This document shows, piece after piece, positions 85 through 62,378 of a stretch of 64,000 nt of DNA. The position numbers and the translations under genes were made by a program. Below the pieces are notes generated by a model. The model worked only from the letters and a program-made list of their open reading frames with translations. It was not told where the DNA came from and ran no database searches. The stretch lies in NCBI GenBank assembly GCA_046563655.1, contig JAJCTO010000011.1, forward strand, positions 744,001 through 808,000, written 5' to 3'. Positions within the stretch are counted from its first letter, which is position 1. Every line of letters starts with the position of its first letter. This DNA comes from Yuukianura sp. NJ FZ-2021 (taxonomy: Eukaryota).

Positions 85-3000
85 AAGCAGTCTCCACAGA
101 AGAAGAACACAAATGATGGTGGTAAAGGTCAATCCAACCGTAAGACCAACAAACAATCAACTGGTAAAGGGAAAAAGTCGAATCAGTCAAATTCGTGTCC
201 CAACTGTGGAAATACTTCACATACAAAAGCCAAAGATTGTCCACATAAAAACGTCAAGTGTCATAACTGTGCAAAATTAGGTCATTTTGCTAAATATTGT
301 CGTTCTGAGTCTTCTAGTGCTAAGCAGAAATCGCAGACGAACGATGTAAGTCAAGTCAATAATGTCCCTGCTGACAACCAGGACATTATTCGGATTCAAG
401 TGACCATCAATCAAGTCCCTCACGTAATGGAATTTGATACCGGATGTCGTCGCAGTATCCTATCAGAAGAATTCTGGAAGTCTTCACTTCGTTCTTCACC
501 TCCACTTCAGAAGTCCAATCAATCATTCCGCACCTACACAAATGAAGTGTTTCACCCCAGTGGCAAGGTTTCAGTAAATCTGGGTTACAAAGGTCAAGTA
601 CACCATGTAAGACTCAATGTCTCCAAAGGTACGTCACTTTTTAAGAGATTGATTAGATTAGTGAAACCGGAATGGAATGACATCGCTGAACAGTGTAACA
701 TTGTCTCTTCTAATAAACTGAGTTTACAGTCCCTCCTTGCCGACTTCTCCGATATTTTCAGTGCTCCTAATGGTTGTATCAAGGACTATAAAGCAAAAAT
801 CGTACTGAAGGAAGATGCAGTTCCAAAATTCCTAAAGGCTCGACCGATCCCTTTTGCTTTACGTCTGAAAGTTGATGCTGAACTTGATTCAATGGAAAAG
901 GCAGGAGTAATTGAAAGAGTTGACACCAGTGAATGGGCATCCCCCATCGTCGTTTATCCTAAAACTAACGGGAAAGTGAGAATCACTGGCGACTTTAAGA
1001 ATACAGTCAATTGTCAACTACATGTTACTCAGTACCCCCTTGCTCGTTCAGAGGACTTGTTCAGTGTTATTGCCGGTGGTGAAAAGTTCACACGACTTGA
1101 CGGTCCCGATGCTTTTCATCAGGTGGAAGTCGATGAACAGTCAAAAAAGTGTTTAGTGATTAACACTCATCGTGGTCTCTACCGCTACCGTGTCCTACCT
1201 CAGGGTATTGCCTCCTCACCCGCAATTTTTCAAGAGTGCATGGACAAATTGCTCAAGGGAATCTCAATGTCCGGTTCGTTTATGGACGATACCCTAGTGA
1301 GTGGCAAAAATGATCAAGATCATCTCTCCTCACTGAAAATGGTTTTTGAGAGGATGAGAGTTTCAAATTACAAGTTGTCAAAATCAAAGTGTCAGTTTAT
1401 GCAAAAGTCCCTTGAATTCATTGGTCATGTGATCACTTCGGAAGGCATACACGTCTCCCCCGAAAAATTCAAGCACTGTTAAGTATACAGCAACCACAAA
1501 GTGTCACTGAAGTGAAATCGTTTCTTGGCCTGGTTAACTTTTATTGTCGTTTTGTTCCCTCACTTTCAGACATTTGCACCCCACTTTACGAACTAACCCG
1601 TAAAGATGTCAAGTTCAAATGGTCTAACCAGTGTCAGTCAGCGTTTGACAGAGTGAAACGTGAACTCTCAAACACTCCAGTACTCGCACACCATGATCAG
1701 TCCAAGCCGATCGGGATCAGCTGTGATGCCTCCAAGTTCGGAATTGGTGTTGTTCTTTTTCACAAGGAAAATGGATTGGAACGACCCATCGCTTTCGCTT
1801 CAAAAACTCTTACTGCTGCCGAGTCTCGTTATTCACAAATCGAGAAGGAAGCACTGTCAATTGTTTTTGGAGTGAAAAAGTTTTTTCAGTATTTGTGCGG
1901 TCGTCCATTCTCTATTGTCACTGATCATAAACCACTTTTGTCCATTTTTGGTTCTAGTGCAGTTCCCTCGTTTGTGGCTACTCGACTTAACAAGTGGTCA
2001 CTTTATCTGAGCCAATTTAACTTTGATATTTCTTACAGAAATACCAAGGACCACGGTAATGCAGACGCACTCTCAAGGTTACCAGTCAAGTCTAATTGTT
2101 CCTGTGACGTTCTTGACTGCAGTGATGTTCACTTCCTCGCTGTAGAAAATCCAAACACCCTCCCAGTCACCTCTAAGAAAATTCGTAACTTCATGAAGCG
2201 AGACAGTGCACTCTCAATTGTTACACGTTATGTGCAGGACGGATGGCCCAGTCATCTTCCAGATTCAGAAAAATACCTACAACCATTTTTCATCCGTCGT
2301 CATGAGCTCACCATTGTCCAAGGAATTTTGATGTGGGGAATTCGTGTCGTCATCCCATCAAAATTGAGACAACAGTTACTGGACGATCTTCATTCTACAC
2401 ACTCTGGCATTGTTCGAATGAAGAGCCTCGCCCGTCAGTTTGTTTGGTGGCCCGAGATCGACAAGGAAATTGAAAACATTGGCAAGTCATGTCAATCGTG
2501 TGGTTCTCAGCGATCAAACCCTCCAAGTGCTCCACTTCATCCGTGGGAATTTCCTGAGAGACCGTGGCAACGTCTACATGTCGACCTCGCAGGTCCATTT
2601 CTTAATCGAATGTGGTTAGTGGTCATAGACGCACATTCGAAATGGCCTGAAGTTTTTAGTCTGGCCAACAATGCATCAAGCAAATCCGTTATTACCAAAG
2701 TTCGTGAGTGTCTCACTCGTTTTGGAATTCCAGACCAGATTGTAAGCGACAACGGAAGTCAATTTACGTCTGGCGAATTCAAAACCTTCTGTTCTTCGAA
2801 TGGAATACGTCATTCCACAAGCTACGCCTACCACCCCCGGTCCAATGGCGAAGCGGAACGCTTCGTTCGTACCTTCAAGGAAAGTCTGAAGAAATCCACA
2901 GGAGATGCAGAACTCTTTCTTCAACGTTTTCTTTTCAACTACCGTATCACCCCTCATTCAACTACTGGAGCAGCGCCATGCGAACTCCTGCAGGGAAGGA

Positions 3001-3542
3001 AGTTGAAATGTTTGTTGGATTTTGTACGTCCTGACGTCCAACCCTCAGTCTCCAACTCCCAACTTAAACAAAAGGAAAAGTTTGACCAAAAGTCAAAACA
3101 GCGTCAGTTCACCATTGGTCAACGCGTTTGGGTCCAAACATTTTTGAAAGGAGAAGAAAAATGGAGTCTGGGCACAATCAAATCTGCAGTCGGTCCGGTC
3201 ACGTACACAGTTTCAACAAATGACAAGGACTACAAACGTCACGTCGATCACATCTTGGATGCACCTCCACTCAAGACGGCTGACGCAGTTGCTGAACAGT
3301 ACGAGTCTCCCGCAGCAGAAGATCCACCTTTGACCTTCTCTCCGCTTAAGGCTCAACCAGCGATCACACTCAACCCCAGTCCGGAAGTTCCAGTTCCACG
3401 TCCAGTTCCAACACAACCGACAGTCTCAGTCCCAGTTCCGCTACAACAGGCACCGACGCCCGTCACTACCCGTCCTGTACTCCGACGCTCACAACGCCTC
3501 CTGGACAAGACACTCAACAACAGTCTCACCCAAAACAAGTGA
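85..3542 (+). mobile_element. Ty3/gypsy LTR retrotransposon gag-pol (zinc knuckles, protease, RT, RNase H, integrase), frameshifted; 5' part outside window
   Basis: Zinc knuckles CPNCGNTSH..C and CHNCAKLGHFAKYC (~196-300) in frame with the 400..1482 ORF; protease MEFDTG; RT WASPIV, LPQGIASSP, FMDD; RNase H CDASKFGIG, TDHKPL; integrase HHCC, SDNGSQF, SNGEAERFV. One base is missing in the A-run near 1462-1466. Confidence 0.95.
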
Positions 3543-3675
3543 AGGAAGGGATGGTGTAGTGTATTCACACTTATCTTAGTTTTAGTCTCCCTAGTTTTAG
3601 TCAAAACTATGTCCCAGTATTAGGGTGTCCCCTCCCGGTTCCTGCTCTGCGCCCTCATCGCCTAGAGTAGGTACT
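3541..3675 (+). repeat. Polypurine tract and truncated 3' LTR start of the gypsy element
   Basis: GAAGGAAGGGATGG directly after the pol stop, then TGTAGTG; sequence switches to BEL integrase near 3680. Confidence 0.6.
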
Positions 3676-3679
3676 AACA

Positions 3680-4872
3680 AAATGTGTGAATTTGTCCTTT
3701 GCTCACTGAGAGAACGATTTTGGATTCTGAAGGGGAGACTGGTTGTGAAGAAACAGCTCAAGAAGTGTGTTACGTGCCAGAGATTTACTGCTAAAAGTTC
3801 ATCAGTTCCCTGTGCACCACTGCCAGAAGACCGTGTCAAAGATGTGGGGGCCTTTGAGGTCACAGGGGTAGATTTGGCCGGCCCTTTAGTGCTCCAGTGC
3901 AAGAAGAAAGTGTGGATAGTGATCTACACTTGTGCCGTATTCCGAGCGGTTCATTTGGAATTAGTAGAATCGCTTTCAACTGATGATTTTCTTTTGTCAT
4001 TCATCAGGTTTTCAAAACGGAAGAGGAGGCCAGCCACTGTCTACAGTGACAATGGAACCAATTTTCACGGAGCCGACAACCTCTTCAAAACGATCAACTG
4101 GAAAGAAGTCGAGAAAAGAACGAAGCACATGAGAATCCTTTGGAAGTTCAACCCTCCTGCTGCACCGTGGTGGGGAGGTTGGTGGGAGCGGCTGATTCGC
4201 ACGCTCAAGGATCTTTTGAAAAGGATGCTGGGATTTGGGAAATTGTCGTACGTTCAACTAGAAACTTGTCTTTGTGAAGTCGAAGCGACAATGAACAACC
4301 GACCCTTGACCTACGTTACAGAAGATCCCGAAGATCTCGTTCCACTGACACCAGCGATGTTTTTGCACAATTTACCATACAGTGATGTGCCAGAATCAAA
4401 GTTCGTGAAAGTGGACACTTTGGGAAACAGAAAGAAACGACTCGACGTTATGCTGCAGGAGCTGAGGGAACGATTTCGGAAGGAATACCTCAGTTTACTA
4501 ATCCAGAAGAAGGCAAAAGGAACAGTTCGTGAGTTTCGAGTCGGCGATTGTGTTCTGATCGGACACGAAAACCAGAAGAAGATCCTTTGGCCCATGGGTC
4601 GTATCCTGGAATTGATGCCTGGACATGATGGGGTACATCGAGTCGCTAAACTTAAGTGCGAGAACGGATTCCTGGTGAGGCCGCTGAAGCGTCTATATCC
4701 ACTGGAGTTTCCACAAGAAGATCCTGGAGTTGATGCATTCGAGAAAAAAGTCAAGATGAAGCCTACAGTGAAGACATCTACACCGATTTTGGAAGCAGAA
4801 ACTGACGGTGTGGTGAAGGAGACACGATGTGGTCGACAGGTTCGAAAGCCAGTACGTTTTGGTGAAGTTTAG
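3680..4872 (+). mobile_element. BEL/Pao LTR retrotransposon integrase and C-terminal region (5'-truncated)
   Basis: LRERFWI..GR..VK..CVTC, GVDLAGP, FRAVHLELV, YSDNGTNF, PPAAPWWGGWWERLIR, NNRPLT, WPMGRI, RPLKRLYPLE are BEL/Pao hallmarks. Confidence 0.93.
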
Positions 4873-7729: not shown

Positions 7730-8270
7730 ATCACAATGGTCAAGGTAGTTCTCAAACCTGCACAAACTTTCAATTGTGTGCATCATGCACAAAATTGTAC
7801 GTTGTGGGGTAGGGGTCGAATATCGTTTCTTTAAAATCAAAATCATAAAAATTTCTTGTGAATGCAAACTTGATCCCTTTCACTCACTATTCACATATTA
7901 AACATTTAAGCCGGATTTTCTACCCTCTAACTAGGCTTAAATTAGCAATGTGAATAAACATACTGTCAGCAAACGACAGGGTCAAAACTTCGTTGTTTAA
8001 ATAAATTTTAAGTAAAATCGAAACCGAAAAATGTCGGGAAACGACAACACTGCGTGTGCGTAAAGTGGCCGCCCACTTCTACGTTGTTAATCTAACATTT
8101 TGAGTGCAATGTAGAGATATTGAAAACAATTGAGCCGTACGTCACCCCCCGACTGCCATGGGGCTTATGTTTCAGAGCAAAAAATCCTTAAAAATGTGAC
8201 AGACGGACAGACAAAGTCGTATCAATAGTCTTCTTCAGCATGTCGTAGACATGCGTCTCCAAAAGACTAA
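7730..8270 (-). mobile_element. Helentron-associated (HINE/DINE-1-like) element, partial
   Basis: Reverse complement of the 14536-15080 part of the full copy, including the GACAGACGGACAGAC microsatellite. Confidence 0.85.
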
Positions 8271-9876
8271 AATTAGATTGGACAGAGAGGCGACTAGAAG
8301 TAGGCTCAACAGACCTACTAGCGCTACACTTGAAAAATTTCAACCAAAATACTACCAGGAGTTGCAGCATCAAGCTACATTCTGCACTTGTAATTAGTTC
8401 GATATCAATTGGAATAATCAAGACCATTTCTTCACTGCTTGGCAAAATTTTAAGTGTGCGTGTGATAAAATTCACAAATTCAAAAATACTTCTTGGTGGC
8501 ACTCAAACTACAACGGACTTTTCTGGCGCGAACTACGTGAACGAAACAAGGTAAGTTAAGCCAGCATCACCTATCTACTTTTAATTTTTTAGAAACATCG
8601 CGCTGTCAACTTTCAGGGTAAAAGTTTCTTGATATGGTTTACGAAAGATAATAGCCCGTGGTCGCCTTATTTATTCTACAGTGTAAAATATTGTCCAACA
8701 AATTTGCGCTTCCTCTGCGACACACTTTGCTTCCCTTGGTAGTTCGTATGACTATAAAATTAGAGTGGACAGAGAGGCAACTAGAAGTAGGCGCAACAGA
8801 CCTACAAGCGCTACACTTGAAAAATTTCAACCAAAATACTACCAGGAGTTGCAGTATCAAGCTGCATTCTGCACTTATAATTAGTTCGATACCAATTGGA
8901 ATAACCAAGACCATTTCTTCACTGCTTGGCAAAATTTTAAGGGTGCGTGAGATAAAATTCACAAATTCAAAAATGCTTCTTGGCGGCACTCAAACTACAA
9001 CGGACTTTTCTGGCGCGAACTATGTGATGGAAACAAGGTAAGTTAAGCCAGCATCACCTATCTAATTTTAATATTTTAGAAACATCGCGCTGTCAACTTT
9101 CAGGGTAAAAGTTTCTTGATATGGTTTACGAAAGGTAATGGTCGTGGTCGCCTTATTTATTCTACAGTGTAAAATATTGTCCAACAAATTTGCGCTTCCT
9201 CTGCCACACACTTTGCTTCCCTTGGTAGTTCGTATGACTATAAAATTAGAGTGGACAGAGAGGGGACTAGAAGTAGCCTCAAAATACCTACTAGTGCTAC
9301 ACTTGAAAATTTCAACCAAAATACTACCAGGAATTGCACTAGCAAGCTGCATTCTGCACTTATAATTAGTTCGATACCAATTGAAATAGCCAAGACCTTT
9401 TCTTCACTGCTTGGCAAAATTTTAAGTGTGCGTGTAATAAAATTTACAAATTCAAAAATACTTCTTGGTGGCACTCAAACTACAACGGGACTTTCCTGGC
9501 GCGAATTACGTAATCAAAACAAGTTAAGTTAAGCCAGCATTACATATCTGCCTTTAATTTTTTAGAAACATCGCGCTGTCAACTTTCAGGGTAAAAGTTT
9601 CTTGATATGGTTTACGAAAGATAATAGCCCGTGGTCGCCTTATTTATTCTACAGTGTAAAATATTGTCCAACAAATTTGCGCTTCCTCTGCGACACACTT
9701 TGCTTCCCTTGGTAGTTCGTATGACTATAAAATTAGAGTGGACAGAGAGGCAACTAGAAGTAGGCGCAACAGACCTACAAGCGCTACACTTGAAAAATTT
9801 CAACCAAAATACTAGTACCAGGAGTTGCAGTATCAAGCTACATTCTGCACTTGTAATTAGTTCGATACCAATTCTG
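8270..9876. repeat. Tandem array, ~487-bp unit, ~3.3 copies
   Basis: TAGA(G/T)TGGACAGAGAGG recurs at ~8274, 8761, 9247, 9734; repeated ORF translations. Confidence 0.95.
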
Positions 9877-11737: not shown

Positions 11738-12713
11738 ATAAACAAGGTAGGGCAATGCTCAAGGGTTGAGCATAGGTCTTCTGGAGGAAGTTGACAATTG
11801 ATGCGACTTAAACCGGCCTGCCTCAAAACTGTAGAAGAACTGAGAAACCGTTTTCATGTTGGGGATGTACCAAAACGTCGCTTAAAATTTTCAGCGCGGA
11901 TTTGAGGTCCTCTTTTGTGCATGCGTTGCACCAAAACTGGATCGCCAACGGCATTTAAATGCACTAAAATCATGTTCCGGTTTTGCGCCCCAAAATATTT
12001 GCACTAAATTGATGTTGTTAATTTGTTGAGCAGGATGCACATAATGTATTATCGGTGTTGCCGTGGCAATGTACTTATTAGCGAAAAGAGCGTGAACCAA
12101 ACGGCGTCAAAATAATGATATCGAAATTTAGCTTTGTGCATCATGCACAAAATTGAACGCTGAGGAGGATGGGTCGAATACCCCTTCTTTCAAATCCAAA
12201 TCGGTTCATGAAAATGCACAGTGTGTTAAATTAAGTGCATAACTTATTGAGTCGAAAATCGCTTGTTTATAATCAAAATTATAAAAATTTCTTGCAAAGT
12301 CAAATTTTACCCTGCCAAGCACTGTTTCCATATTATGAGTTTAAGCCAGATTTTCTATCCTCTAATCAGTCTTAATTTAACAACGTAACTAAACATACTG
12401 CCAGAAAATGACCAGATCAAAACTCCGTTGTTTATAAATACTTTGAGTGCAATCGAAACCAAAACTGTTTTGCGGAGCCACGATACTGCGGGTACGTAAA
12501 GTAGCCGCCCAATTCTACGTTGTTAATGTACGACTTTAAGTGCAATGTAGACCTAATGAAAACACTTAAGCGATACAAGACACCCCGTCAATAATGGAGG
12601 TAATGTTTGAGCGCAAATTGTCCTAAAAAACGTTACGGACAGACAGACAGACAGACAAAGTCGTATCAATAGTCTTCTTCAGCACGTCGTAGACGTGCGT
12701 CTCCAGAAGACTA
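11738..12713 (-). mobile_element. HINE/DINE-1-like non-autonomous Helentron, full length
   Basis: Both ends present: subTIR TAGTCTTCTGGAG, internal IR, GTCY microsatellite, 3' subTIR plus stem-loop ATGCTCAACCCTTGAGCAT. Confidence 0.88.
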
Positions 12714-13022
12714 AAAGTGGAGGAGGAAAGCGGTGTTACGGAGTTACATAAAGTTTTCTAATCACCCGAAATTTCGACTTAAGGACGTGTGTTATGCGTC
12801 TAATAAACAATTGTCGTTAAATTTAGTAACCACGATAACCGAACTTGTGCAGTTAGTAAAAGTTGCAGACATCGACAAAAATAAACACCCTCGAAAGTGG
12901 CGAAAAACGTTCAGTGCAAAGTGGATCAAAAAAGTGGGCACTTTCAAACAAACAAAATACTGACTCAAGTTCGGTTGCCGTCGTTTGGGTATTGTAAACA
13001 ACTTTTGTGAGACTGTGACATT

Positions 13023-14136
13023 AGCTAATGGGAGTGGTAGAGGAACGTCGGCTTTTTCAAAATGGCGGCCGTCCTTATCAGCTATTGCATCTGCATAAGA
13101 CGTTTTTTGCTCATGCGCAAAAACGTTTTGCATATGACGTCATGGCCCCCCCCTTCCGCACCCCCCATACCCCCCACTATATATCCCTCCCCCTATATCC
13201 ACCCCCCCCCCACGTGACCTCCAAGTCACGTGCCCCCCTCCCCAAACCACAAAATTGAAATTTATTTTAAAAAAAATTATTTACAAAAAAACAATTTTTG
13301 AAGAAAAAATCAATTTTTGAAAAAACTCATTTTTTGAGAAAAAAAAAATTCCTGAAATTTGGAAATTGGAAAATGTTTTGAAACTTGGAAATTGAAATCA
13401 AAAGTGAAGGTAAATTTCCCCAGATTACCCCAACTTGAAATGTCAAGGTCACGCCAATTTTTTCAAGGTCATTCCAATTTTTTTTTTCAGGGTCATGCGC
13501 GCCCTTTGCATTGGCATATGAATTTGCGTCAGGTCATGCGCGCCCATTTGCAATTTCATGTAAATCGTTCAAAGTCATTTCTCTCAAGGTCAATCGAGCA
13601 TTTTGAAATTGTCAAGTCCCGGGAGCCCTTTTCTGGGTTCCCGGGACCAAGGGGATCAAGTATGGTGCATGGGCGGTACATTCGGCTGGTCAGAGGATTA
13701 GTGGGGTGCCACTCGGCCACTGCCAAAGCAAACCGCAAACCACTTCCGGCCAACCTGCCCGTGCAAATGCACGTACAATTCCATTTCAATTTTCACTTAC
13801 ATTTGCTAAAAACATCAAGGTAAAAGGTCAAATGGAATTGTCACCAGGCTCGGGGGCGTGGCTAGCCGCCCGACTTTTTGTCCAATCAACGCTGAGCATT
13901 TCAAAAGGAGGCGTGGCTCGAGGAAATGGAGACATTTCATTGGTCGAGACCTGGCAATACAGCCGGGGGTGTGTCTAACTCTGGCCAGTGTGCGTTTACC
14001 ATTTCAAAAAGGGGCGTGGCCTCAGAAAATGGAGACATTTGATTGGTCGACAAAACTTGCAATACATTGGGCCCGCCATCAAGCCATAGTGTTGTCATTT
14101 CCTGCTTAAACTCAGACAAGTCGCCCGGGCGGACTG
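13023..14136 (+). repeat. Left terminal inverted repeat of the Polinton-type element
   Basis: Reverse complement of 19627-20779 with substitutions and indels; mirrored spurious ORFs in the track. Confidence 0.95.
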
Positions 14137-14535
14137 GTCAGAGCCTCCACTTCGATTACATCTGATGGTAGGATCCGTGAGTTCGATTCAATCTGCCCCC
14201 AAATAATATTTATGTTGTTCAAGCGTTTACGGAAGAATATAAACGCAGGCTTGGCGTTTGTCACTGGCATGCCCGAGTTACTTACGCTTACAACACTATG
14301 CTAAATTATATTACGGAAACGTGTTTGTAGAAACGCGTACGGCATAAACCTGACTTTGAACAACCGTATCAAGCATAACAGGCAATTTGTGCCACCACCA
14401 ACAGCTTTGCAGAAAACCAAAAACTGAATACAGATTTTGTTTCTTGTTTTCTTTTTGTCCTTTTTTTTCGCTTTTTTTTGTTTTTTTTTGGTTTTATGTT
14501 TTTTTGTTGTTTTTTTTTCGTTTTTTTCTTCGTTT

Positions 14536-15469
14536 TAGTCTTCTGGAGACGCACGTCTACGACGTGCTGAAGAAGACTATTGATACGACTTTTCTGTCTG
14601 TCTGTCCGTGTGTCCTGTTTTTTAGTACCCTTTCCGCTGAAACATAAGCCCCATCGCAGTCGGGGGGTTATGTGTGGCTCAAGTGTTTTTAGTAGGTCTA
14701 CATTGCACTCAAAGTGCTAGCTTAACAACGTCAAAGTATGCGGCTGCATCGCGTTGTTGTTTCTTAAGACCTCAAAATTTTTGTATTAGGTCTGCATTGT
14801 ACTCAAAATATTTTTAAGCAACGAAGTTTTGATCTTCTCATTTTCTGACATTATATTTAGTTACGTTGTTAAATTAAGACTGATTAGAAGGTAGAAAATC
14901 CGGCTTAAATTCGTAACATGTAAACAGTGCATGGCAGGGTTAAAATTTGCTTTTGCAAGAAAAATTTATAATTTTGATTTTAAAGAAACGATATTCGACC
15001 CTTACCCCACAACGTACAATTTTGTGCATGATGCACACAATTGAAGGTTTGTGCAGGTTTGAGAACTACCTTGAGCATCAAAACAATTAACAACATTTTG
15101 ATGCAGTTAAATTAACGCTGGTCGCTAATAATACATTGCCGTGGCAACATCGATAATACATTGTGTGTATCTTGCTCAACAAATTAACATCAATTCAGTG
15201 CAGATATTGTGGGCCTCAAAACTGAAACATGATTTTGGCGCAACTATAACTGTAAAATTTCCAAAACAATTTTAGTGCATCTCATGCACAAAATAGAATC
15301 CCACATTCGCACGAAAAAAATTGTAGCGACGATTTAGAGCATCAATTCCATGAAAACGGTTCCTCAGTTCGTCCACAGTTCTGCGGTAGGCCGGTGGCAC
15401 TGTCGTATCAATTGTCAACTCCCTCCAGAAGACCTATGCTCAACCCTTGAGCATCGCCCTACCTTGTTT
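14536..15469 (+). mobile_element. HINE/DINE-1-like element inserted in the Polinton-type element
   Basis: TAGTCTTCTGGAG...GAAGAAGACTA, TCTGTCTGTCTGTCC, end CTCCAGAAGACCTATGCTCAACCCTTGAGCATCGCCCTACCTTGTTT; T-rich flanks. Confidence 0.9.
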
Positions 15470-15595
15470 ACTTTTATTTATAAAAGACACAATGTTTTTT
15501 TTAACGAGGAGATTAGTTTATTTTTGAAATTGTGAAAAATTTACAAGAAAAAAGACTTGAGACAGGGCTAATGAAGATTAAAAATAAAGTTATTT

Positions 15596-16909
15596 TTAAA
15601 AGAATATTTTTTTGTTGGATGCAAGTCCAGTAATTCTATTTCCATCAATTTGTAAAGTTTCGTCTTTGATTCCGACGATGAGAACCACCAAATCCTTGTT
15701 CGTCGGGGTTTCAAAATCAATTTCCAATCCGTATTGTCCAGATCTGGTCGCATTGTATCCGTCAGTCCACAAATCCTGGGCGTCAAATGCAAAGATTGCA
15801 TTTCCGTTTACAAACTTGTCGTAGGAAATGTCATTTCCTTCACTCTGACGAGAAACCAACTTGCACAAATTGTGATAGGCAAGCATGTAATTTTTGTCTT
15901 TGAAAATCATTTCTTGATAGACCAACGGTTTTTGCTCAAATTTTAGCAACAGACGGCTAACACCATGGGGTTTAAAGTTGAATGGTGACTTTTCAACTTT
16001 TTTCCCTTCGTAAACTTCTAGTTCCAAAATGCCAACTAAAAGAAGTTTTGGGTGCATAGTACTGTGGTAGGCATCTGTTAAATCAACCGAACTGAGATTT
16101 TTCGACACATATTCTAAACGCATGTGGGCCTGATCGTATGAATAGTTGGCCACTTTGTTTTTTGCAAACCCTTACCGGATCTGAGTCACTATTTTTTCGC
16201 TGGGATTCACTTGGCGAATATAATACTCGGCCGATTCCACTGTAATTTTGTATTTGGTAGTTGTTGCCGGACCTCGCAAGCAAAATGATGCATCACTCTT
16301 TTTAATTTCAAAATAGAATTGAGTGTTGTGCGGGAATAGCTTCTTGGTAGTGAATAGGCCGACAAACGGGCGCCCAATCATTTCAAACGTTTGACTATTT
16401 TTTGCCAAGTTTAATCGCGCCTTGTAACTCGGGTTTGTGTCGTCGTGGGTGTCCATGACATCTCCGGCATAATAACCCACTTTTGACAATGTGCTGCATT
16501 TGGTTCCAATGCCGTTAAAGAGTTGAGTGAGCATCCAGGCTTCATACGAGTATGCTCGGTATCCTTGAGCAACTACTTGGCAATTGTTGACCAAAACTTT
16601 GAAGTCGTCAATGAACGCATGAAAAAATAAATTTTCTGGCGCAATTTGGTCTGCATCGGTGAGCAGAGTTCCATCACTTTTTTTAATTGAAAACACTAGT
16701 TTTAAAAAAGAATCGGACAGGTCCAAGTAACCATGCGCTGGCTGTTCCACTCGAAAGTAGATTGGATTAGGGTCTGTCGATGGTGAAAAGGGTTTCACTA
16801 CTAGATAATTGCCCAAAATGAACGACACATCCGTGGTTGGCTTTGAAAACAAGTCAAATTTGGCACTTGTGGTGACCAATTTCGAATTCACTGGCACATT
16901 AACCTCCAT
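15596..16909 (-). pseudogene. Polinton/Maverick double-jelly-roll major capsid protein (PY/hexon-like), one in-frame stop
   Basis: FDLFSKPTT, PIYF, YLDLSDSFL, PENLFFHAF, YSYEAW, FEMIGR, SPFNFK, YHNL, GNDISY..F..GNAIFAFD. ORFs 16172..16969 and 15596..16153 are the same frame, separated by TAA at 16174-16172. ATG at 16909 in AAAATGG context. Confidence 0.88.
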
Positions 16910-17029
16910 TTTAGCACAAAAACACGCACGAGATGTTGCTCTGACGACTACCAATTGACGACTGAGCACTACTTTCCCGGGTTAACGTGTAAATTTTGGG
17001 GTAGCACTGAGCACTAGACACGTGTTTAC

Positions 17030-17088
17030 TCGTCGCAAGTCAGACGTAGATTGACTAATGGTTGTGAAATAGGCTCCCTTTTATAGCT
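17030..17088 (-). promoter_or_regulatory. Putative MCP core promoter (TATA + Inr)
   Basis: Minus strand TATAAAAGG, then TTAGTC and ACGTCTGACTTGCGAC; same layout at 17573-17628. Confidence 0.6.
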
Positions 17089-17461
17089 TTTTGGGCCAAA
17101 TTTTTCAATTTTGCAACAATTTTACGCCTTTTTCGCCCTGTTTTGGCAGATTTTTCTGGTTTTCTGCTATTGTCTTTAGAAACTTGCATTTTTCTGCAAT
17201 TGTTGCAAAGATTTTCGTCTGAATCTGTACTGCTGGACCCATTTTTTGGTAAATTTTGCTTCAAATTTGACACTTTTTTGGGCCGCGATCGCTTTCTGAC
17301 CTTCTTTTGGGCAATTCCGCGGACATTTTTTGAACAATAGCGGGCGATGATATCGTTTTTGTGGCTAAACTTGCATTGTTGCACTTGTTTTCGCCATTTT
17401 CTGGCGTCAAACTGTCACTATTGTTGCTAAAATCAGAGTTTCCTGGTTCGTCAACTTCCAT
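17055..17461 (-). pseudogene. Small K/R/S-rich gene between penton and MCP, probably frameshifted; candidate core/DNA-binding protein
   Basis: ATG at 17461 in AAAATGG context with its own TATA/Inr; overlapping basic ORF 17055..17384 (RKRSRPKK, GRKRRK). Function is inference. Confidence 0.45.
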
Positions 17462-17572
17462 TTTTACACAAAAAATGCACTAGATGTTGCTTCTACGAGC
17501 GCAAAACTGATGACGTTTTTAAAGGTTTTTGGGTAAACTTTTGCACTGTTTTGTACTGTTTTCGTGTTGCTT

Positions 17573-17628
17573 GGTCGCAAGTCAGACGTCAACTGACCAG
17601 ATTTTGCCTTTTGTGACCTTTTATAACT
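17573..17628 (-). promoter_or_regulatory. Putative core promoter of the small basic gene
   Basis: Minus strand TATAAAAGG, then TCAGTT (arthropod Inr) and ACGTCTGACTTGCGAC. Confidence 0.6.
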
Positions 17629-17642
17629 GATCTTTGAAGAAT

Positions 17643-19373
17643 TTAGGCGGCTTTTCTGACGTGAAGTTCAAGTTGTGTTGGGCTGTGTGCTTCCGGAATT
17701 GGTGCCAGGCGTTCGTCCAAAAGTTGAACGTAAATGGAAATGATCATAGACTGCCTTTTTACCGCAAAATAACGCAGCACATTGACTTGCAAGTCTACTG
17801 GTTTGCCATCCTGGTCGCATTGGCGGAAAATTCCAATCAATGGCAGGACCTTTTCTCCAAACTGTGTATAGTTGGCTACATCGCACACGCCAAGGAGATG
17901 TTTTGACGTCACTCCAAGGTCAATTTCGGCCTTGGCTGGATTCGTTTGGCTAAATCCTTTGATTGTGGCTCCCAGTGGCAGTCCAAATATTTGGTCCAAA
18001 AGCGGTGAGAGGGTGGTAATGTAATTGTGTGCAGATTCTCGAGTGTATTTGAGTACAGTCTCTTCCTCAGAGTACTTGAATGTAATTTGGAATTGAGCCA
18101 AGGCGGCGTTCATGGCTTGAATCAGTCCCTCTACCTTCTTTTCTTTGGGTTCAATTACGGTTGCCAAGTTGACCTTGTCTTGGAAAATGTGGAGCGTCAT
18201 GTTAATTGTTGGATCAATGGCGTCAAAAACAGCTTCGGAATATTCGTCACTCCATTTGGGAACGTGTTGGTATCAAAGCCAAAGGCTCGAGCATACTCGG
18301 CCGTAATGGTAACCACGTGGTCCTTTTCGTCGTTGGTAAGTAAAAAGACTTACCAACGACGAAAGGGACCACGTGGTTACCATTACGGCCGAGTATGCTC
18401 GGCCGTAATGGTAACCACGTGGTTACCTAGGTTCTATTAATAGGGGCGAGTTGGCTCAGTGGTTAAGCCATCAATGCTTTTCCACTGGCCGGCCTGGGTT
18501 CGCACCCAGTCAGCGGGAGAGGAAAAAAGAAGTCGAGGCCGTGGGTCCTCCCTGTCCCGAAGCAGGGAGGCAAGTGCTGGACTTCTGCCTTTCCTGCGGC
18601 TGCTGTGTGGACACCCCAAGATAAAGGAGAGTGTCGGGGGCACCGCATCTACAAGAACTGCCTGCTGTGGTCACAGTACCAAGCTGACCTTGAGTCAGAG
18701 GTCTGTGATCATCGTAACGAGCAGGTAAGAGCTTCGCAGATGTTGGTGTTTACTGATTACTACTCCTTGAACCAGTCCATTAAGCAAAAAAATACTCATT
18801 CAATCTGATTTGTTTATCGAAATACGGACGACCTCCGTAAGGTGATAACATTCAGATTATCATAATGTGTGTTTGCTCAGAAAGGACAAAAAAATAACGC
18901 TGTTTCTAAAGGGGTTATGTTGAAATATTCCATATAAGCGAATGCTCAGCGTGAGTCAGTCACCTAAATATAGGTGACTGCTCCCCCCAATAAACATATA
19001 TACATATAAGTAAAAAGACCTTGTTTGTGTATGAAATGACAATTTTTCGGTCCAATTTTTTCAATTCCTTGTTGACATGACTGAAAAACTTTATAATTCC
19101 ATCCATTTTTGGGATTGTCACTGTCACCTCGAGGTGCTCGGTGACATTTATGACATCATCGCCCACACTGTGGCCAAAAATGTTACGCTGAGGCTTGGGC
19201 GCTGGAGTATAGTACATTCCAACAATGGCAACCTCCAGTTGTTGTGCCAAGCCATCGAGGAGTGGATCCAAGTTGGCACGAAACTCGTTTGGCTTATTGC
19301 CAAGGTAAAAGCTACTGTTCAAAGCACTATCAAGAATAATGTACCGCGAACTGGGTTTAACAATGACGGCCAT
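17643..19373 (-). pseudogene. Polinton minor capsid protein (penton/PX), interrupted by a SINE and a 1-nt frameshift
   Basis: N-term YIILDS..NSSFY.GNKPNEF..NL...LEVAIVGMYY; C-term VCDV....FGEK.LPLI...YFAV...IYVQLLDE...LELHVR. Removing 18350-19019 joins SYTNKVFLL to TNDEKDHVVTITAEYARAFGF. Confidence 0.82.
18350..19006 (+). mobile_element. tRNA-derived SINE with 13-bp TSD inside the penton gene
   Basis: Head at ~18443 with A box TGGCTCAGTGG and B box GGTTCGCACCC; 3' stem-loop CAGTCACCTA-AATA-TAGGTGACTG; TSD TAAGTAAAAAGAC at 18337-18349 and 19007-19019. Confidence 0.8.
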
Positions 19374-19461
19374 GGTTGACGCTGAGTTGGACAAATACAA
19401 ATTAACACTTTCACTTGAACTTTTTTAGGAGAAGGTAATGTTATCGACGCAGAAGCTAGTG

Positions 19462-19503
19462 AAACACTGAGCCGTTTGGGGCAACTTGACGGTCTTATAT
19501 AGG
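19462..19503 (-). promoter_or_regulatory. Putative penton core promoter
   Basis: Minus strand CTATATAAG followed ~30 bp later by TCAGT, ~95 bp before the ATG at 19373. Confidence 0.55.
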
Positions 19504-19626
19504 CACAACCAAGGACGTCACCGTAAAAAACAGCAAAAAAAAATGCAGGGGTCGCGTGGCAAGGTGTGCCGACGGCGCAGTCGCAATCTAACTTCCGACA
19601 CGTAAACTTGCCATTTTGTGTATCAA

Positions 19627-20779
19627 CAGTCCGCCCGGGCGACTTGTCTGAGTTTAAGCAGGAAATGACAACACTATGGCTTGATGGCGGGGCCAATGTA
19701 TTGCAAGTTTTGTCGACCAATCAAATGTCTCCATTTTCTGAGGCCACGCCCCTTTTTGAAATGGTAAACGCACACTGGCCAGAGCTAGCCACGCCCCCGA
19801 GTGTAGCGGCAAGTCTCGACCAATCAAATGCCACCATTTCCTAAAGCCACGCCCCCTTTTCAAATGTAAACACTCAATGGCCAGAGTTAGACACACCCCC
19901 GGCTGTATTGCCAGGTCTCGACCAATGAAATGTCTCCATTTCCTCGAGCCACGCCTCCTTTTGAAATGCTCAACGTTGATTGGCTCAAGAGTAGGGCGGC
20001 TAGCCTCGCCCCCGAGCCTGGTGACAATTCCATTTGACCTTTGACCTTGATGTTTTTAGCAAATGTAAGTGAAAATTGAAATGGAATTGTACGTGCATAT
20101 GCACGGGCAGGTTCGCCGGAAGTGGTTTGCGGTTTGTTTTGGCAGTGGCCGAGTGGCGCCCCACTAATCCTCTGACCAGCCGAAAATACTGTCCATGCAC
20201 CATACTTGATCTTCCTGGTCCCGGGATCCCAGAAAAGGGCTCCCGGGACTTGACAATTTCAAAATGCTCGCTTGACTTTGAAAAAAAAATTGAAATGACC
20301 TTGAACAATTTACATGAAATTGCAAATGGGCGCGCATGACCTGACGCAAATTCATATGCCAATGCAAAGGGCGCGCGTGACCTTGAAAAATTTGGCGTGA
20401 CCTTGAAATTTGGGGTTGGGGTATGCTGGAGAAATTTACTTTCACTTTTGATTTCAATTTCCAAGTTTCAAAACATTTTGCAATTTCTAAATTTCAGGAA
20501 AAAAAATTTTTTCAAAAAACGATTTTTTTTCAAAATTCAAAAATTTCATTTTTTTTAGAGAAAATGATTTTTTAAAAAATGTGGTTTGGGGGAGGGGGGC
20601 ACGTGACTTGGGGGTCACGTGGGGGGGGATATAGGGGGAGGGATATATAGTGGGGGGTATGGGGGTGCGGAAGTGGGTGATGACGTCATCATCGTAACGT
20701 TTTGTGCGCATTTGCAATTGCAGATAAGGATGGCCGCCATTTTGAAAAAGCCGACGTTCCTCTACCACTCCCATTAGCT
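19627..20779 (-). repeat. Right terminal inverted repeat of the Polinton-type element
   Basis: Mirror of 13023-14136 with extra copies of the internal GC-box sub-repeat. Confidence 0.95.
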
Positions 20780-20786
20780 GACATTG

Positions 20787-21060
20787 AAATGGTCTAGGTC
20801 AGCGTAGGAATGTCGTACAGTGACCCACAATATATCAAACTTTAGGAAAAGACTTGATCTAGTACCCTGTCGGAGAAAACTACAAAATTTTAGTTCTATC
20901 TATGTAAATATGGAGGTGGGATGTTTGGGTTAATTTTTTTCAAGGTTAGAACTAAAATTGTGTAATTTTTCTCCGACAGGGTACTAGATCAAGTCTTTTC
21001 CTAAAGTTTGATATATTTTGGTTCATTGTATGACCTTCCTACGCTGATCCAGACCATTTT
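20787..21060. mobile_element. MITE with ~110-bp TIRs
   Basis: ATATCAAACTTTAGGAAAAGACTTGATCTAGTACCCTGTCGGAGAAAA and its exact reverse complement ~100 bp downstream. Confidence 0.85.
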
Positions 21061-21986
21061 CCATTTGATGAGCTACAGCCGCATTTTGACCCCCCGTTTC
21101 CACGGTGTTCGCACACCTTAAGTATTAAAAATTTTGAAAAAGCCAAAAAAAACAAATTTTTTTTTTGAAAAGTCGCGTTCTTGAATTGAAGCAGTATTGA
21201 ACGATAGACCATTGACGTTTCTTGAATCCATTTAATAAATCCAGATTAGCCTTGCGGATCAGAAATCCTTGTTTTCGTTTACACTTCTTGAGCACAAAAT
21301 CTCGTGTATGGAATTTAGTATAAAAATTTCAGATCTCTTGACAATTTCAAATCTGTCTGCTTAAAATTAAACACCAGACGCTTCCCGTTACCACAATTTG
21401 AACAAAAATAGCACAAAAATACTCTTAAGAGAGACTGAAAATTGTCCATAATTTCCTCTTAATTATTATCTGATATGCCACAATTCATAGCAACAAGCCA
21501 CTAACTTATATTACTTACTGACTGTTACAAATTACGCCACATTTCCCTTATTCCCAATTTGAAAACAGTGGGACCTACTGCATAAGCTTGTGACGTTTAG
21601 CATTAACAAGTCCACTTACTAAGGTCGTTTGAGCTAACTTAGAATAAATTATCGATCATACCCTTATCGGAAGTGCCCTAGTAAGCTTCTGTTCTCAAAA
21701 CAGTATTAGTACAAGACTAGATTTGTAATTAAGAAGTCACGCGTCGACACTTCGAAGTGCGCTCATGAGACTGCGCACAACGTCTAAACAATTTAAAGCA
21801 CTACGATTGTCCCTGCCCACGAGTCACAATTTGATGAATCACAACATTGGGACAAGTTGTCACACAACTGAAGGTAAAATTAACACAAGTTTGTAAGAGT
21901 ATTGTATCACATTGCTAAAAAGTTCGTTTCTGGAATCCCAAGTCGGTGAGATTTCGCCTCTGCAGGTTCACTAATTTCTTCTAATT

Positions 21987-38204: not shown

Positions 38205-40769
38205 ATGGAAACCTATGATAGCTCTGGTGGTCATGGATTCCAAGTACCAAGTTCCGTAAGTTTAAAGGTTCCGCTGATCATTATTTGAACGAATATTGGA
38301 TTTACTACATAATCATGAACTTATGTAACCAAAAGGATACGACACAGTGGACCGAGGAGGTGGAAGATGATGCCGTATGGGGCGTGTATTTGAAAAAGAT
38401 TCGCTACCAGAGGCCTTCTGTCTTAGTCCAAGTGGTTACCAACTATCCGTCTTCATCTTCTTCCGGGCCAAGCCACAGTCAGTCGTTAGGACGCTCAAGC
38501 GGAATTACGTCCTGCACCACCTCTTCGTCCGACGTCGTCATTGATGAAGTGGACTCTGACCAAGGAGAAATTGCTCATTTGATGTGGGAAACTGTTCGTG
38601 TGCGAGTGCTCAGAGCCGGAACCCTTCGACGAATAGTTGAAGCCATGTCGAACGAGGACAGCGATGTCCAGGTGAGGGAAAGTATTAACTGAAGTTGTGT
38701 ATACAGTCACAGGAAATTATTCTACTGAGAAAAAAATAAACTGTTTTTGAGTAGGCGACGCATCTGAGCGTGTTCTTAGCTACGTATCGTGCCTTTGCAA
38801 CTCCGACTGAAGTACTACAAGAAATCATCTACCTCTACAAGCACTCAAGTCAAGACTCACTACGAAAGTAAGTCAAATTAATTAAGGTAGTTGAGCCTAA
38901 TTAGCCCATGTTTGTTCTTTGTTATAAAGTAGCATTGACCTTACTCGGAGTATTTCATCATAATAGGGTGATGCTGGACTGTCTCAATGCATGGCTCGAC
39001 TCTTATTCTGAAGATTTCGAATCCGGAGGGGATGGTTACCACTGTTTACGTAAAGTCATCCTGCCATTTGCACAAGATCAAGGACTCACTTCTCTGGCAC
39101 TAAAAATTCAATATAAACTGAGATCACGGCGCAAGATGAGGAAGTCTAGCAGCCTGCACTCTCTACGCACTTTCTCGCCGCAGAACATTCGAACGTACTC
39201 ACTCTTGGCCATACCGGAATCACATTTTGCACAACAGCTCACATACTATGATAAGGTGACACATTTTGAAGCAAAACGTTCCATATAGACAAATTGTCTT
39301 AACACAAGTCCATGTTTTTTAGGAACTATTTCTTAATTTGCGTGTTTGGGAATGTTTGGGAGGCTTGTGGAAGCGAAGGTGCGGATGTGCTTCTGTAGCG
39401 GCAACAGTTGAGCAGTTCAATGCACTTTCAGGACGTGTTGTGGCCACGATTCTGGTTGATCCGACTTTACCTCTGCAACAAAGGGCGAAAATACTCGAGA
39501 AATGGATTCGAATTGCTCAGGTGGGATTTCGGGAAAACACTGCTTTTTTTCTTGTAGTTGTTGGGCAGGAATGACGTTAAATTGCATTGTTACAGGAATT
39601 ACGGCAGCTCAAGAATTTTTCGTCGTTGAAAGCCATCATTGCAGGCCTGGAGTCAAACCCAATCTTTCGCCTCTCCAAGCTCTGGCATCTCGTCTCCAAG
39701 GACCGCCTGACCATTTACTCTCAATTATCCCAAATCTTCTCCGAAGACAATAACCGAATGGCACAACGGAGTCTTCTGGAAGCCGAGGGAACTGCCAAAT
39801 TCCCTACACCCACCAAGAGTCCAAAGGACAGAAGATTCTTGTCAAGGGTCCTCCGCTCCAGTCATAGCACGAGAGGCACGACGACGGCAGAATTCGACTC
39901 TCCGAATGGGACGATTCCCTATCTTGGTACATTCCTCTCTGATTTGACTTTCATGGACGCTGCATACCCAGACTACGTACACGGAACACTCATCAACTTT
40001 GACAAACGAAAAAAGGAATTTGAAGTGTTAGCTCAGCTGAAGCTCCTACAAGGGTCTGCCAAAGGATATCGGCTAGAGGAGGATCCGTACTTCACGTCGT
40101 GGTACAACTCTTTAATAGTGTTGGATGACAAGGCTGCCTATGACTTGTCTGTCGCAATTCAAACTGAACGGGTTCCGCCAAAAGGACATCGCAAGAGCGA
40201 CTCTTTTGCTTCAAACTCATCCTCGGAAAATACGGAGAGCGTTTTGGGAATTCCCCCCACTCGAAAGGTAATTTGTAATTTGAAAACTAATTATTATTAT
40301 GTGATTTACATTTATATTGTTCTATTAGGGTTCAATCCAGAGTTCAAACGAAAGTTCCATGGGTTACTCAGAGGCTCCACCAGTCGTACCCGGACTCACT
40401 TCCCCCACGCCGGAAACATCAGTCGTTGTGAAAGTTTCATCACCAGCCAAATCAGATGTAATGTACAAATCTATGATTGTCAGTAATTCGGACCACACGC
40501 CGCAAGTGATAGCCCAAGCGCTGGAAAAGTTGGGTTTCGAAGGAGAGGAACCTCGTCGCTTCTCACTCGTCCAAGTTCTCGCTAATAAAGAACTTAAGTT
40601 CCCCGCAAACGCAAACGTTTTCTACGCCCTGGACAACTCGGGAGTTCCTGGAAGCGTTCGATTGGAGTTGAGGCCAACAACGAACCACACGTCTGGACGC
40701 AACCTTCGCGTGAGCCCCAAACCACACCCGTTGTCCCTCTCATCCGTGAGTCTCAACAACAATCAATAA
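38205..40769 (+). CDS. Rgl: Ral guanine nucleotide dissociation stimulator-like (REM, CDC25 RasGEF, RA domain), multi-exon
   Basis: WETVRVRVLRAGTL, FLATYRAFAT, ATVEQFN, LKNFSSLKAII, GTIPYLGTFLSDL, INFDKRKKEFEVLAQ, C-terminal YKSM...ANANVFYA. Start codon inferred from in-frame splicing. Confidence 0.92.
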
Positions 40770-44730: not shown

Positions 44731-44970
44731 AGTAGTCTGCTGGAGACGCATGTCTACGACATGATGAAGAAGACTATTGATACGACTTTGTCTGTCTCTC
44801 CGTCCGTCACACTTTTTAGGATTTTTTGCAATGAAACATGAGCTCCATTGTGTTCGTGGGGTTATGTATGCCTCAAGTGTTTTCATTAAGTCTACATTGC
44901 ACTCAAAGTGTTATCTTAACAACGTAGAAATAGGCAGCCACTTTACGCACCCGCAGTATTGTCGTCATTG
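44731..44970 (+). mobile_element. HINE 5' fragment
   Basis: GGAGACGCATGTCTACGACATGATGAAGAAGACTATTGATACGACTTTG. Confidence 0.85.
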
Positions 44971-46735: not shown

Positions 46736-46944
46736 CAAAACCGTTTTGCGGAGCCACGATACTGCGGGTATGTAAAGTAGCCGCCCACTTCTACGTTGTT
46801 AATGTACGACTTTTACAATGTAGACCTACTAAAAACACTTGAGCCATAGATAACCACCCGATTGCGATGGGGCTTATGTTTCAGCGCAAATGTTTCAGCG
46901 CAGAAGACCTATGCTCAACCCTAGAGCATTGCCCTACCTTGTTT
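46736..46944. mobile_element. Rearranged HINE fragment
   Basis: Minus-orientation internal piece fused to a plus-orientation 3' end AGAAGACCTATGCTCAACCCTAGAGCATTGCCCTACCTTGTTT. Confidence 0.8.
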
Positions 46945-58925: not shown

Positions 58926-59568
58926 AATTTACACAAAGTTAATTTTAATGAAAATATAATTTCTGAAATTCAAAGGATGTGTAAATTTTTTATTTTGAAT
59001 TTGGCCGCGTTCAAAATTTGTACAATAGATCCTCTCAAATCGAAACTTTTTTGGGTTAGATTTTCTATTATGCTTACAATCGGTTGAGATAAGGTTTTGC
59101 AACCTTCATTGTATCGGCACAGTGTAGCCACTTTGTGGCTACACTATTCAGTTGCATAATGGGTGGTGTGGGAAAACAGTATTGGTAAGCCTCCAGTGGA
59201 TAAGGAGGCACCATGGTCCGGTCACACCGGCTGCTTTACTTTTTCCTATCCCGCAGAGTGGAGGACGAGGTCGCAGGTTCGAAACTCGGGTCAGTCCTCA
59301 TACTGCCCGAAGAAAAAAAAACATAAATAAAGCCTCACTGCAAGCTGAATTGCATAACTGAGTTGATTAGGTTAATTAGTTTGTTAATTTGTCCCAGGCT
59401 TGTGCAAGCATCCCGATTCCCCTAGGTTAGTATTCAACTCAGTTTGCACCTTCTGCACTAGTCGTCTGCAATTGGTTTTAAAAAACCGCTGGGGAAAACA
59501 AAAAAACCGTTTTTTCCCGTAGCAACGTATTATGCACATAGAGTTGTCAAGACGACGATTTTTCGTTT

Positions 59569-61581: not shown

Positions 61582-62378
61582 CTTTTAACTAGAATGGACA
61601 TAAGGCATTTTTTCAACAAAATTTTTGAAGCAAATTAAAAGAGGTAAAAAAACCGATTTCACCTGAACTTTAAGGCCGGTTTTCACGACGAAATTCAAAC
61701 GTTCTTTCAAACTTTCTAAAATTGTTAATAAAAAAAAGTTGAAAAGACAGTCAAATAATTTTTGAATTGCAAAGGGTGGATCTTTGGTTGGTGAATCGTG
61801 GAGCCAAATAAACTTCTTGCTAATTAACTTTACTGCAAGGGAGATTTGTAGAGAACGGTTGTGGCAGTACTTTAGATACTTTAGAAGGATATCCATAACT
61901 TCTTAGCTACAGCAGCTTGAAGTCTCAATTGCAGTGAAACTAATTAGAAGGAATTTAATTTGACTCCAGGGTTCACCAATTGAAGATCCACACTTTGAAC
62001 TTCAGAAACTATTTGACTGTTTGTGTCGCCTCAAACTCCAAACAAATTAGTGACACCCGTGTCAGATCCATAGTTCCTAAATCACGGGAGAATGACCTGG
62101 TGATTTCTACCATTGATGTATACTTAGTAAGTAGATAGTAACTTAGATGTAGATAGGTTGTTTAGATGTAATTAACTTAAGTATCAGTAATTTAATTAGA
62201 ATTAGTAAATAGTAACTTCAATTTAACTTTTTGCCAAAGCAATTTCAGCAGCAGAAGCAATTGTTGGGTTGCTGCCGCTGCCACCTCCTCTTGGCACACT
62301 ACTAGTCACCATTTGTATCATGACAGATATGCGCGGATATTTTGTCTAAAAAGTCTTAAAAACCTGCTTTTCGCATTT

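Follow-up and report, generated by a model that had tools for sequence, protein, structure and literature searches.

A capsid-only Polinton/Maverick-type element with paired inverted ends in Yuukianura sp., probably mobilised in trans

Polintons (Mavericks) are thought to alternate between transposon and virus life styles, and to our knowledge their virions have not yet been seen. The locus described here lies in contig JAJCTO010000011.1 of Yuukianura sp. NJ FZ-2021, within a stretch of 64,000 nucleotides that was analysed as a whole (the window), and it raises a simple question: was an element that holds capsid genes and no enzyme genes between the inverted ends of a Polinton already compact when it landed, or is it what remained of a full-length Polinton? 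In the papers searched, reduced Polintons have either lost the capsid module or are plain fossils, and a capsid-only element is the reverse case. The answer that we consider probable is that of a non-autonomous Polinton/Maverick-type element, compact before landing and copied and inserted in trans, which is now a fossil.

The boundaries of the element could be read directly. A perfect 6-bp target site duplication (TSD), GACATT, occupies positions 13017-13022 and 20780-20785, and the element between the two copies (13023-20779, 7,757 bp) has AG at its start and CT at its finish. Its first 21 nt occur within the 64 kb at both termini only, allowing for up to 3 mismatches, where shuffling gives an expectation of 0; in viral contigs the terminal 21-mer had 0 matches. 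The terminal inverted repeats (TIRs) measure 1,114 bp on the left (13023-14136, plus strand) and 1,153 bp on the right (19627-20779, minus strand). Global alignment of the arms gave 91.7% identity, with 87 mismatches over 1,043 aligned columns (Kimura two-parameter distance, K2P, 0.088) and 9 gap events, one of which represents a 102-bp unit that is present twice in the inner part of the left arm (13879-14050) and three times in the right arm (19713-19984). Long TIRs with 5'-AG...CT-3' ends and a 6-bp duplication are what Polinton integrases produce (TSD, TIR range and end motifs after PMC8097293), and AG/CT termini are reportedly regarded by Kapitonov and Jurka as a hallmark of Polintons. The termini, the TSD and the ~1.1-kb arms had all been claimed in a preliminary description of the locus, and direct reading and measurement agreed with it. 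The same holds for the overall dimensions. Without the dispersed repeat and its tail (~14440-15502) and the interruption of the penton gene (18288-19019) the element comes to ~5.96 kb, of which 2,267 bp (38%) is TIR, close to the earlier figures of ~6.1 kb and over a third; the unique DNA between the stop of the major capsid protein (MCP) gene and the left TIR amounts to ~0.4-0.5 kb (earlier ~0.5 kb), and its part next to the left TIR (14137-14439) contains neither an open reading frame (ORF) nor a match to an enzyme profile.

Several motifs were noted within and near the TIRs by eye. The arms contain a TGACGTCA site, a CACGTG...CACGTG palindrome and long C runs (13135-13142 and 13212-13233), and each of the 102-bp units has a CCAAT-like and a GGGGCGTGGC box. 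Together they have the appearance of Pol II upstream elements, from which the end-proximal gene would profit. About 100 bp to the inside of the left TIR there is an inward-facing TATA-like box followed by an ORF of just 10 codons (14230-14335, plus strand); this could be what is left of an end-proximal gene since lost, or a chance occurrence.

Three genes, a penton gene, a small basic ORF and the MCP gene, lie between the TIRs, all on the minus strand as had been described. The 437 codons of the MCP gene (15596-16909) share one frame, which a stop interrupts once (16172-16174); for searches the gene was translated through this stop with an X. Within a word-indexed database 4 of 3,657 candidates proved to be MCP relatives, three at 40-44% identity (437-444 aa) and one at 25% (438 aa), and an exhaustive search recovered 2,680 representative relatives at E <=1e-3, 27 of them at <=1e-30. 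The AlphaFold2 model (81-row alignment) reached a pLDDT of 91.4 and a pTM of 0.90, and Foldseek related it to double jelly-roll MCPs, those of Singapore grouper iridovirus (1.7e-15) and Sputnik (2.5e-15), as well as those of PBCV-1 and mavirus (E ~1e-13). Within BFVD the top matches were a bracovirus-borne protein (7e-23, 20% identity), a MELD-virus protein and the adomavirus LO7. The predicted structure thereby confirmed a double jelly-roll fold for the window protein. Pfam and PHROGs gave nothing meaningful for the three element proteins or their relatives, the MCP and small-ORF profiles nothing useful when run against PDB sequences, and of 29 pattern stretches matched by the MCP alignment in viral contigs 0 were confirmed. 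A prokaryote genome collection contained one distant MCP relative of canonical type (L057, 6562-7824, 25% identity), located near the end of a 268-kb contig that is filed as a bacterial metagenome-assembled genome and that is probably a misbinned eukaryotic contig. The MCP gene is preceded by a TATAAAAG box (17085-17078) and a 35-nt motif (17055-17021; the pair at 17021-17085, minus strand) and followed, ~75 nt past its stop, by an AATAAA poly(A)-signal-like hexamer (15517-15522, minus strand), an arrangement that recurs in the relative L001 discussed below.

The penton gene is present in two pieces, an N-terminal one of 118 codons starting from an ATG at 19373 (19020-19373, minus strand) and a C-terminal one of 209 codons plus stop (17643-18272, minus strand). 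The right TIR's inner end and the TATATAAG box of the gene (19494-19501, minus strand) are 126 bp apart, where ~130 bp had been estimated. When compared with a family profile constructed from 18 full-length ORFs upstream of MCP relatives, with the window left out, the C-terminal piece matched positions 90-253 of 260 at E 1.4e-11; the N-terminal piece is colinear but weak (positions 10-108, E 0.008), and by eye it clearly resembles the N-terminus of a 147-aa relative, P0159. The model of one member of the family (L021; 20-row alignment) had a pLDDT of 91.9. Its top Foldseek matches were the mavirus penton (6e-11), the Sputnik penton and the adenovirus penton base, and VIA-align gave Z scores of 14.8 to 12.4 against the pentons of PBCV-1, fowl adenovirus, mavirus and Sputnik. 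Structure prediction thus bore out the earlier naming of both capsid proteins, with the MCP fold modelled in the window protein itself and the penton fold in the family to which the window gene belongs by profile. The pair of a double jelly-roll MCP and a single jelly-roll penton is that of a Polinton/Maverick; both genes are broken in the window copy.

The penton pieces are 747 nt apart, with an in-frame stop (18273-18275) just beyond the interruption (18288-19019). The latter is composed of a near-perfect hairpin with 54-nt arms (18288-18401), a third partial arm up to 18423, and a stretch resembling a short interspersed element (SINE; ~18430-19019, plus orientation) in which a tRNA-like head and A/B-box-like motifs were recognised by eye. 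Since neither ARAGORN nor Rfam recognises this head, 'SINE' stays a by-eye reading; there is no second copy of it in the window either. Across the element ARAGORN and Rfam reported no RNA, the sub-threshold matches to miRNA models in Rfam being confined to the hairpin. The preliminary description had listed a 'HINE' and a SINE as later insertions: the former proved to be a dispersed repeat, of which the window contains no fewer than six further partial copies, and the latter is only plausible. An intron as the cause of the gap is ruled out by the hairpin and the repeat with its tRNA-like head, and the relatives are gapless at this point. The two pieces sum to ~327 aa, ~65 aa more than the 255-263 aa of the canonical relatives, and their excess length and overlap on the profile could stem from an internal duplication of old date, from expansion or from chimera formation. 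When the C-terminal piece was used as a single sequence in a database search, 0 of 200 candidates scored, and a 3-row penton profile retrieved 4 proteins, all of 68-195 aa and none of them an uninterrupted close relative of the long form in the window. Among the penton proteins three 'mini-pentons' (P0157, P0158 and P0159, 147-195 aa) lack the insertion domain that the canonical penton (255-263 aa) has in its middle. P0159 (147 aa) is of the L006 type and P0157 (156 aa) of the L003 type, and the corresponding loci (L003 1-255 and L006 3-191) belong to lineages near the MCP clade of the window. The middle insertion domain was kept in the window, and the whole penton is absent from L001.

The small ORF region between these two genes (17058-17461, minus strand) has a broken reading frame, as an ATG frame (17461-17264, 66 aa) overlaps the Lys/Arg-rich frame (17414-17058, 119 aa, 29% K+R) that bears a conserved ...KGS-hydrophobic-F end. 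Basic ORFs with the same position, composition and C-terminal motif were found in L001 and L006, the similarity being weak (E 0.03-0.07). Upstream of the small ORF there is again a TATAAAAG box (17625-17618), with a second copy of the 35-nt motif (17597-17563; the pair at 17563-17625, minus strand), so that this motif is common to the TATA regions of the small ORF and the MCP gene and lies downstream of the TATAAAAG box in both. Canonical relatives have in the penton-MCP interval a conserved small-ORF family whose members bear a QRGHG(I/L)G motif, have a basic tail and end in DIFS (e.g. L021 9105-9548, L023 4510-5055, L011 6002-6547, L007 3400-3915, and others); this family occupies the 'PW' position of vertebrate Mavericks and has no sequence match in the PDB. 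Homology between it and the Lys/Arg-rich ORF of the window was not detected by hhalign (probability 0.1%), and their equivalence is positional only.

To what extent the element deviates from its relatives becomes clear from the gene order around related MCPs, for which a metagenome scan provided 56 loci. Pfam identified DNA_pol_B_2, an A32/IVa2-type ATPase and an rve+chromo integrase on five longer loci, and adenain weakly; the order in the longer loci is protein-primed polymerase (pPolB)-ATPase-integrase (INT)-penton-small ORF-MCP-protease (PRO). PRO directly follows the MCP gene in 20 of the 24 loci with at least 450 bp downstream. The exceptions are L001, L008, L009 and L049, the last three of which are truncated fossils that are cut through genes and have kept INT or penton pieces. 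Upstream, where the sequence before the MCP gene extends over 2.6 kb or more (14 loci), penton and INT are present without exception. The second module of vertebrate Mavericks has the same order, INT-mCP-PW-MCP-PRO, in the available text of section 7 of PMC8097293. Given the canonical order INT-penton-small ORF-MCP-PRO, the window element keeps only the middle three genes of the block.

No trace of the enzymes was recovered. A tblastn comparison of the 64-kb window with the ORFs of all loci, down to a length of 100 aa, gave 61 matches, 58 to the MCP, 2 to the penton and 1 to a retrotransposon integrase, and neither the element nor the rest of the window showed a trace of pPolB, INT, ATPase or PRO. 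The one marginal match outside the element, near 2,500, is explained by the rve domain of a retrotransposon with long terminal repeats (LTRs), the only rve in the window (1416-3542). Profiles for PRO (from 29 loci), INT (26), ATPase (8) and pPolB (only 3) reached a best E of 0.097 against the six-frame translation of 12501-21300 and against L001, L006 and L056. The earlier statement that no remnant of these four genes is visible thus stands for the element, by tblastn and by profile, and the set that marks an autonomous Polinton (pPolB, rve integrase, packaging ATPase and adenain-type protease) is missing from it. Polinton-like viruses are recognised by an MCP, a penton, an ATPase and a replication protein other than pPolB, and here there are three virion ORFs only, with the ATPase at an E of at least 0.097. 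The gene content, an own capsid and no replication proteins, is that of a satellite virus, with genes that are intact in L001 and broken in the window.

L001 is a 3,944-bp metagenome contig and the only one of the 56 loci with inverted repeats (3-454 against 3795-3365, 83% identity, with ~230-bp repeats). Its interior consists of a TATA box, an intact Lys/Arg-rich ORF of 132 aa and an intact MCP gene of 436 aa, 45% identical to that of the window, followed by an AATAAA 45 nt past the stop and a ~180-bp spacer; a penton is absent, and no match to an enzyme was obtained. A quick maximum-likelihood tree built from 37 MCPs places the window together with L001, L006, P0004, P0005, P0006, P0008 and P0009 in a well-supported clade of eight (SH-aLRT 100), with outgroups that are canonical in context (L004 with INT, L003 with penton). 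Both flanks are visible in two of these members, the window and L001, and both are TIR-bounded and capsid-only, which is new. The 1,218-bp L006 contains a penton end, a basic ORF that ends in ...KGS-x-F and an MCP start 49% identical to that of the window. No DNA common to the window and L001, L006 or L056 was found outside the MCP gene. P0008 (541 aa) has an insert of ~100 aa of low-complexity repeat in the middle of the protein. Of several compact loci expected earlier one was thus obtained, a second compact, TIR-bounded and capsid-only element of the same clade, although with unrelated TIRs, from another source and without penton.

The copy in the window is decayed, as had been noted: a stop interrupts the frame of the MCP gene, the small ORF is broken by a change of frame, the penton gene is in two pieces, and a dispersed repeat has settled behind the MCP gene. 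This repeat of ~1 kb (14526-15502, with an A-rich tail at ~14440-14540; together 14440-15502, minus strand) is a later arrival, considering that the window contains at least six other partial copies (7736-8272, 11739-12716, 44733-44938, 46779-46944, 59559-60081, 61118-61613 and 62376-62810; 74-85% identity). One copy of the repeat lies 300 bp outside the left end of the element, in an orientation opposite to that of the copy inside. On the assumption that the TIR arms started out identical at the time of insertion, the change per arm is ~4.4%, and for the MCP gene this gives an estimate of ~2.5 stops per 1,311 bp under neutral decay, assuming that ~4% of random substitutions create stops. The single stop observed is as expected from neutral decay. 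The MCP gene has 0 frameshifts and the TIRs 9 indel events, but most of the latter occur in homopolymer or repeat tracts, so that the contrast allows no conclusion on selection.

Based on the above, the history of the element may be pictured as follows. It would have been compact at integration, two ~1.1-kb inverted ends of Polinton type around a penton, a small basic protein and an MCP, with a TATA promoter for each gene and a poly(A) signal behind the MCP gene. As it lacks genes for both a polymerase and an integrase, we infer that it was copied and inserted by the enzymes of an autonomous Polinton: the protein-primed polymerase and the rve integrase of such an element in the same nucleus would have copied it from its ends and inserted it, and this insertion in trans would have produced the 6-bp duplication. 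The contribution of the intact element itself would have been capsid proteins, presumably functional. After insertion the MCP stop, the frame break in the small ORF, two small insertions in the penton gene and the retroposon-like repeat behind the MCP gene would have accumulated.

A number of points weigh against this picture. The element may be a deletion derivative that arose either ahead of integration or in place. In-situ loss from a full-length element would leave ends and a TSD that look the same, the window contains one copy of the element, and its genes, being broken, do not demonstrate that they worked in the compact layout. The overlap of the penton pieces on the family profile (90-108, a helix region) may point to a more complicated history. 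L001 has a different source, no penton and no TIR sequence in common with the window; its contig ends inside the repeats, and a false join across repeats of 124/269 bp is possible. Finally, the tree on which the clade is based was obtained by a quick search only.

The picture of a compact element mobilised in trans can be taken one step further. Nested within it is the idea, which we put forward tentatively and rate as doubtful, that the entire eight-member clade is capsid-only, an old and long-lived heritable lineage of 'satellite Polintons' of ~4-6 kb with selected capsid genes, borrowed enzymes of autonomous Polintons and a penton that went from full to mini to absent. The window and L001 are compact where 20 of 24 loci (PRO) and 14 of 14 (INT) elsewhere are canonical; only L001 counts as independent, because the window was picked for its compactness, and L001 may itself be misassembled or a deletion derivative. 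The MCPs of P0004, P0005, P0009 and L001 are intact and constant in length (436-437 aa) at only 40-45% identity, which implies long purifying selection. Genes in the clade (window and L001) are spaced and have individual TATA boxes, whereas the ORFs of canonical relatives overlap. The five database members (P0004, P0005, P0006, P0008 and P0009) reside on contigs of 2.6-6.0 kb, and that of P0005, the sister of L001, matches in size, with its 5,991 bp, the window element stripped of its insertions, although contig size is weak evidence and autonomous members of the clade may just be unsampled. Gene content is also uneven within the clade, with a penton that has the insertion domain in the window, a mini-penton in L006/P0159 and none in L001, and no helper was identified.

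The main contender outside the preferred reading is erosion in situ, in which a full-length Polinton integrated and two internal deletions subsequently took the INT side and the PRO-pPolB side. The age and damage of the copy (K2P 0.088, 9 indels, three broken genes and two to three insertions) fit such a course, as would the TATA-like box and 10-codon ORF near the left TIR if they are the stump of a lost gene, and 96% of vertebrate Maverick loci are degraded according to the available part of PMC8097293. It would nevertheless require two large deletions that spared both TIRs, the three capsid genes and their promoters and that left no enzyme fragment behind. The relatives that are clearly eroded (L008, L009 and L049) look different, cut through genes and retaining INT or penton pieces, and in L001 the genes are intact in a comparably compact layout. 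We therefore consider erosion in situ unlikely.

The boldest suggestion of the preliminary description was a Polinton-like virus split into two parts, with this element as its structural segment and a same-ended partner that carries pPolB, INT, ATPase and PRO. What speaks for it is indirect, the capsid-only content within replication-type ends and the partly reciprocal set of 9 Polintons without MCP, PRO and ATPase (available text of PMC4028283). No partner was found in the 64-kb window, the viral contigs or the 56 loci, and the packaging ATPase and maturation protease, which normally belong to the virion module, are gone as well, which makes a split virus very improbable. An assembly artefact or a chance arrangement of unrelated repeats, for which nothing specific speaks beyond the repeat-rich surroundings, is hardly credible in view of the exact TIR ends, the perfect 6-bp duplication, the colinearity of the block with the canonical gene order and the presence of 32-42% of sampled interior words in public sequencing runs (none of the 5 runs listed being an RNA run with element words).

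The surroundings of the element are animal-type, repeat-rich DNA that includes a Tc/mariner-type fragment. An LTR-retrotransposon pol (85-4872, plus strand) contains the domains RVT_1, RNase H, Integrase_H2C2, rve and DUF5641, and an open frame with a RasGEF domain (39581-40486, plus strand) is presumably a host exon.

If the element is of a propagating type, the Polinton capsid genes would be selected in their own right, Polintons would have hyperparasites or satellites of their own, and the ends and promoters would represent a minimal natural set of cis-elements for Polinton replication, integration and packaging. L001, with its intact genes, hints that capsid-only, helper-dependent forms may recur. 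If it is a mere deletion derivative, it would still be a clean example of trans-mobilisation in a superfamily for which non-autonomous copies have rarely been reported. A full-text literature search brought to light no account of a Polinton with capsid genes only; one may nevertheless have been recorded before, e.g. in Repbase.

How does the element relate to known systems? Satellite viruses and virophages encode their own capsid and need a helper for replication; virophages, whose helper is a giant virus, have retained ATPase and protease genes and, as a rule, genes for replication. The window element, known from its genes alone, resembles them in having an own capsid and, presumably, a helper-dependent replication; unlike virophages it has neither ATPase nor protease, and its presumed helper is a Polinton, not a giant virus. 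Transpovirons encode a helicase/polymerase-derived protein and no capsid, and in this respect the window element, with capsid genes and no helicase or polymerase, is their opposite. In being small (~7 kb), having inverted ends and depending on other viruses, transpovirons do resemble it, as far as the available text of PMC5499653 and PMC3671162 goes.

With the autonomous Polintons/Mavericks the element shares the 6-bp TSD, long TIRs, AG...CT termini, a double jelly-roll MCP and a penton, and with the vertebrate Mavericks the order minor capsid, small ORF, MCP (both after the available text of PMC8097293). It differs from autonomous Polintons by the lack of pPolB, integrase, ATPase and protease, and from the abutting genes of Mavericks by its spaced genes with a TATA box each. 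Vertebrate Mavericks, as covered in that text, have TIRs of 46-1,447 bp, a size of 12.7-24.6 kb and the end motifs (AG)3 or (AGT)2 (PMC8097293), unlike the window element with its 7.8 kb (~6 kb before insertions) and AGCT... ends. The 9 Polintons of Krupovic et al. 2014 that lack MCP, PRO and ATPase (available text of PMC4028283) likewise show modular block loss inside Polinton ends, but these keep polymerase and integrase and lose the virion genes, the reverse of the situation described here. Finally, DNA-transposon derivatives with internal deletions have also kept their ends, lost their enzymes and move by means of the enzymes of a partner, and in the anole genome non-autonomous Polinton copies were apparently absent (both according to the available part of PMC3014272). 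Typical derivatives of this kind have no complete genes, going by the same part of that source (PMC3014272), whereas the window element has three complete transcription units.

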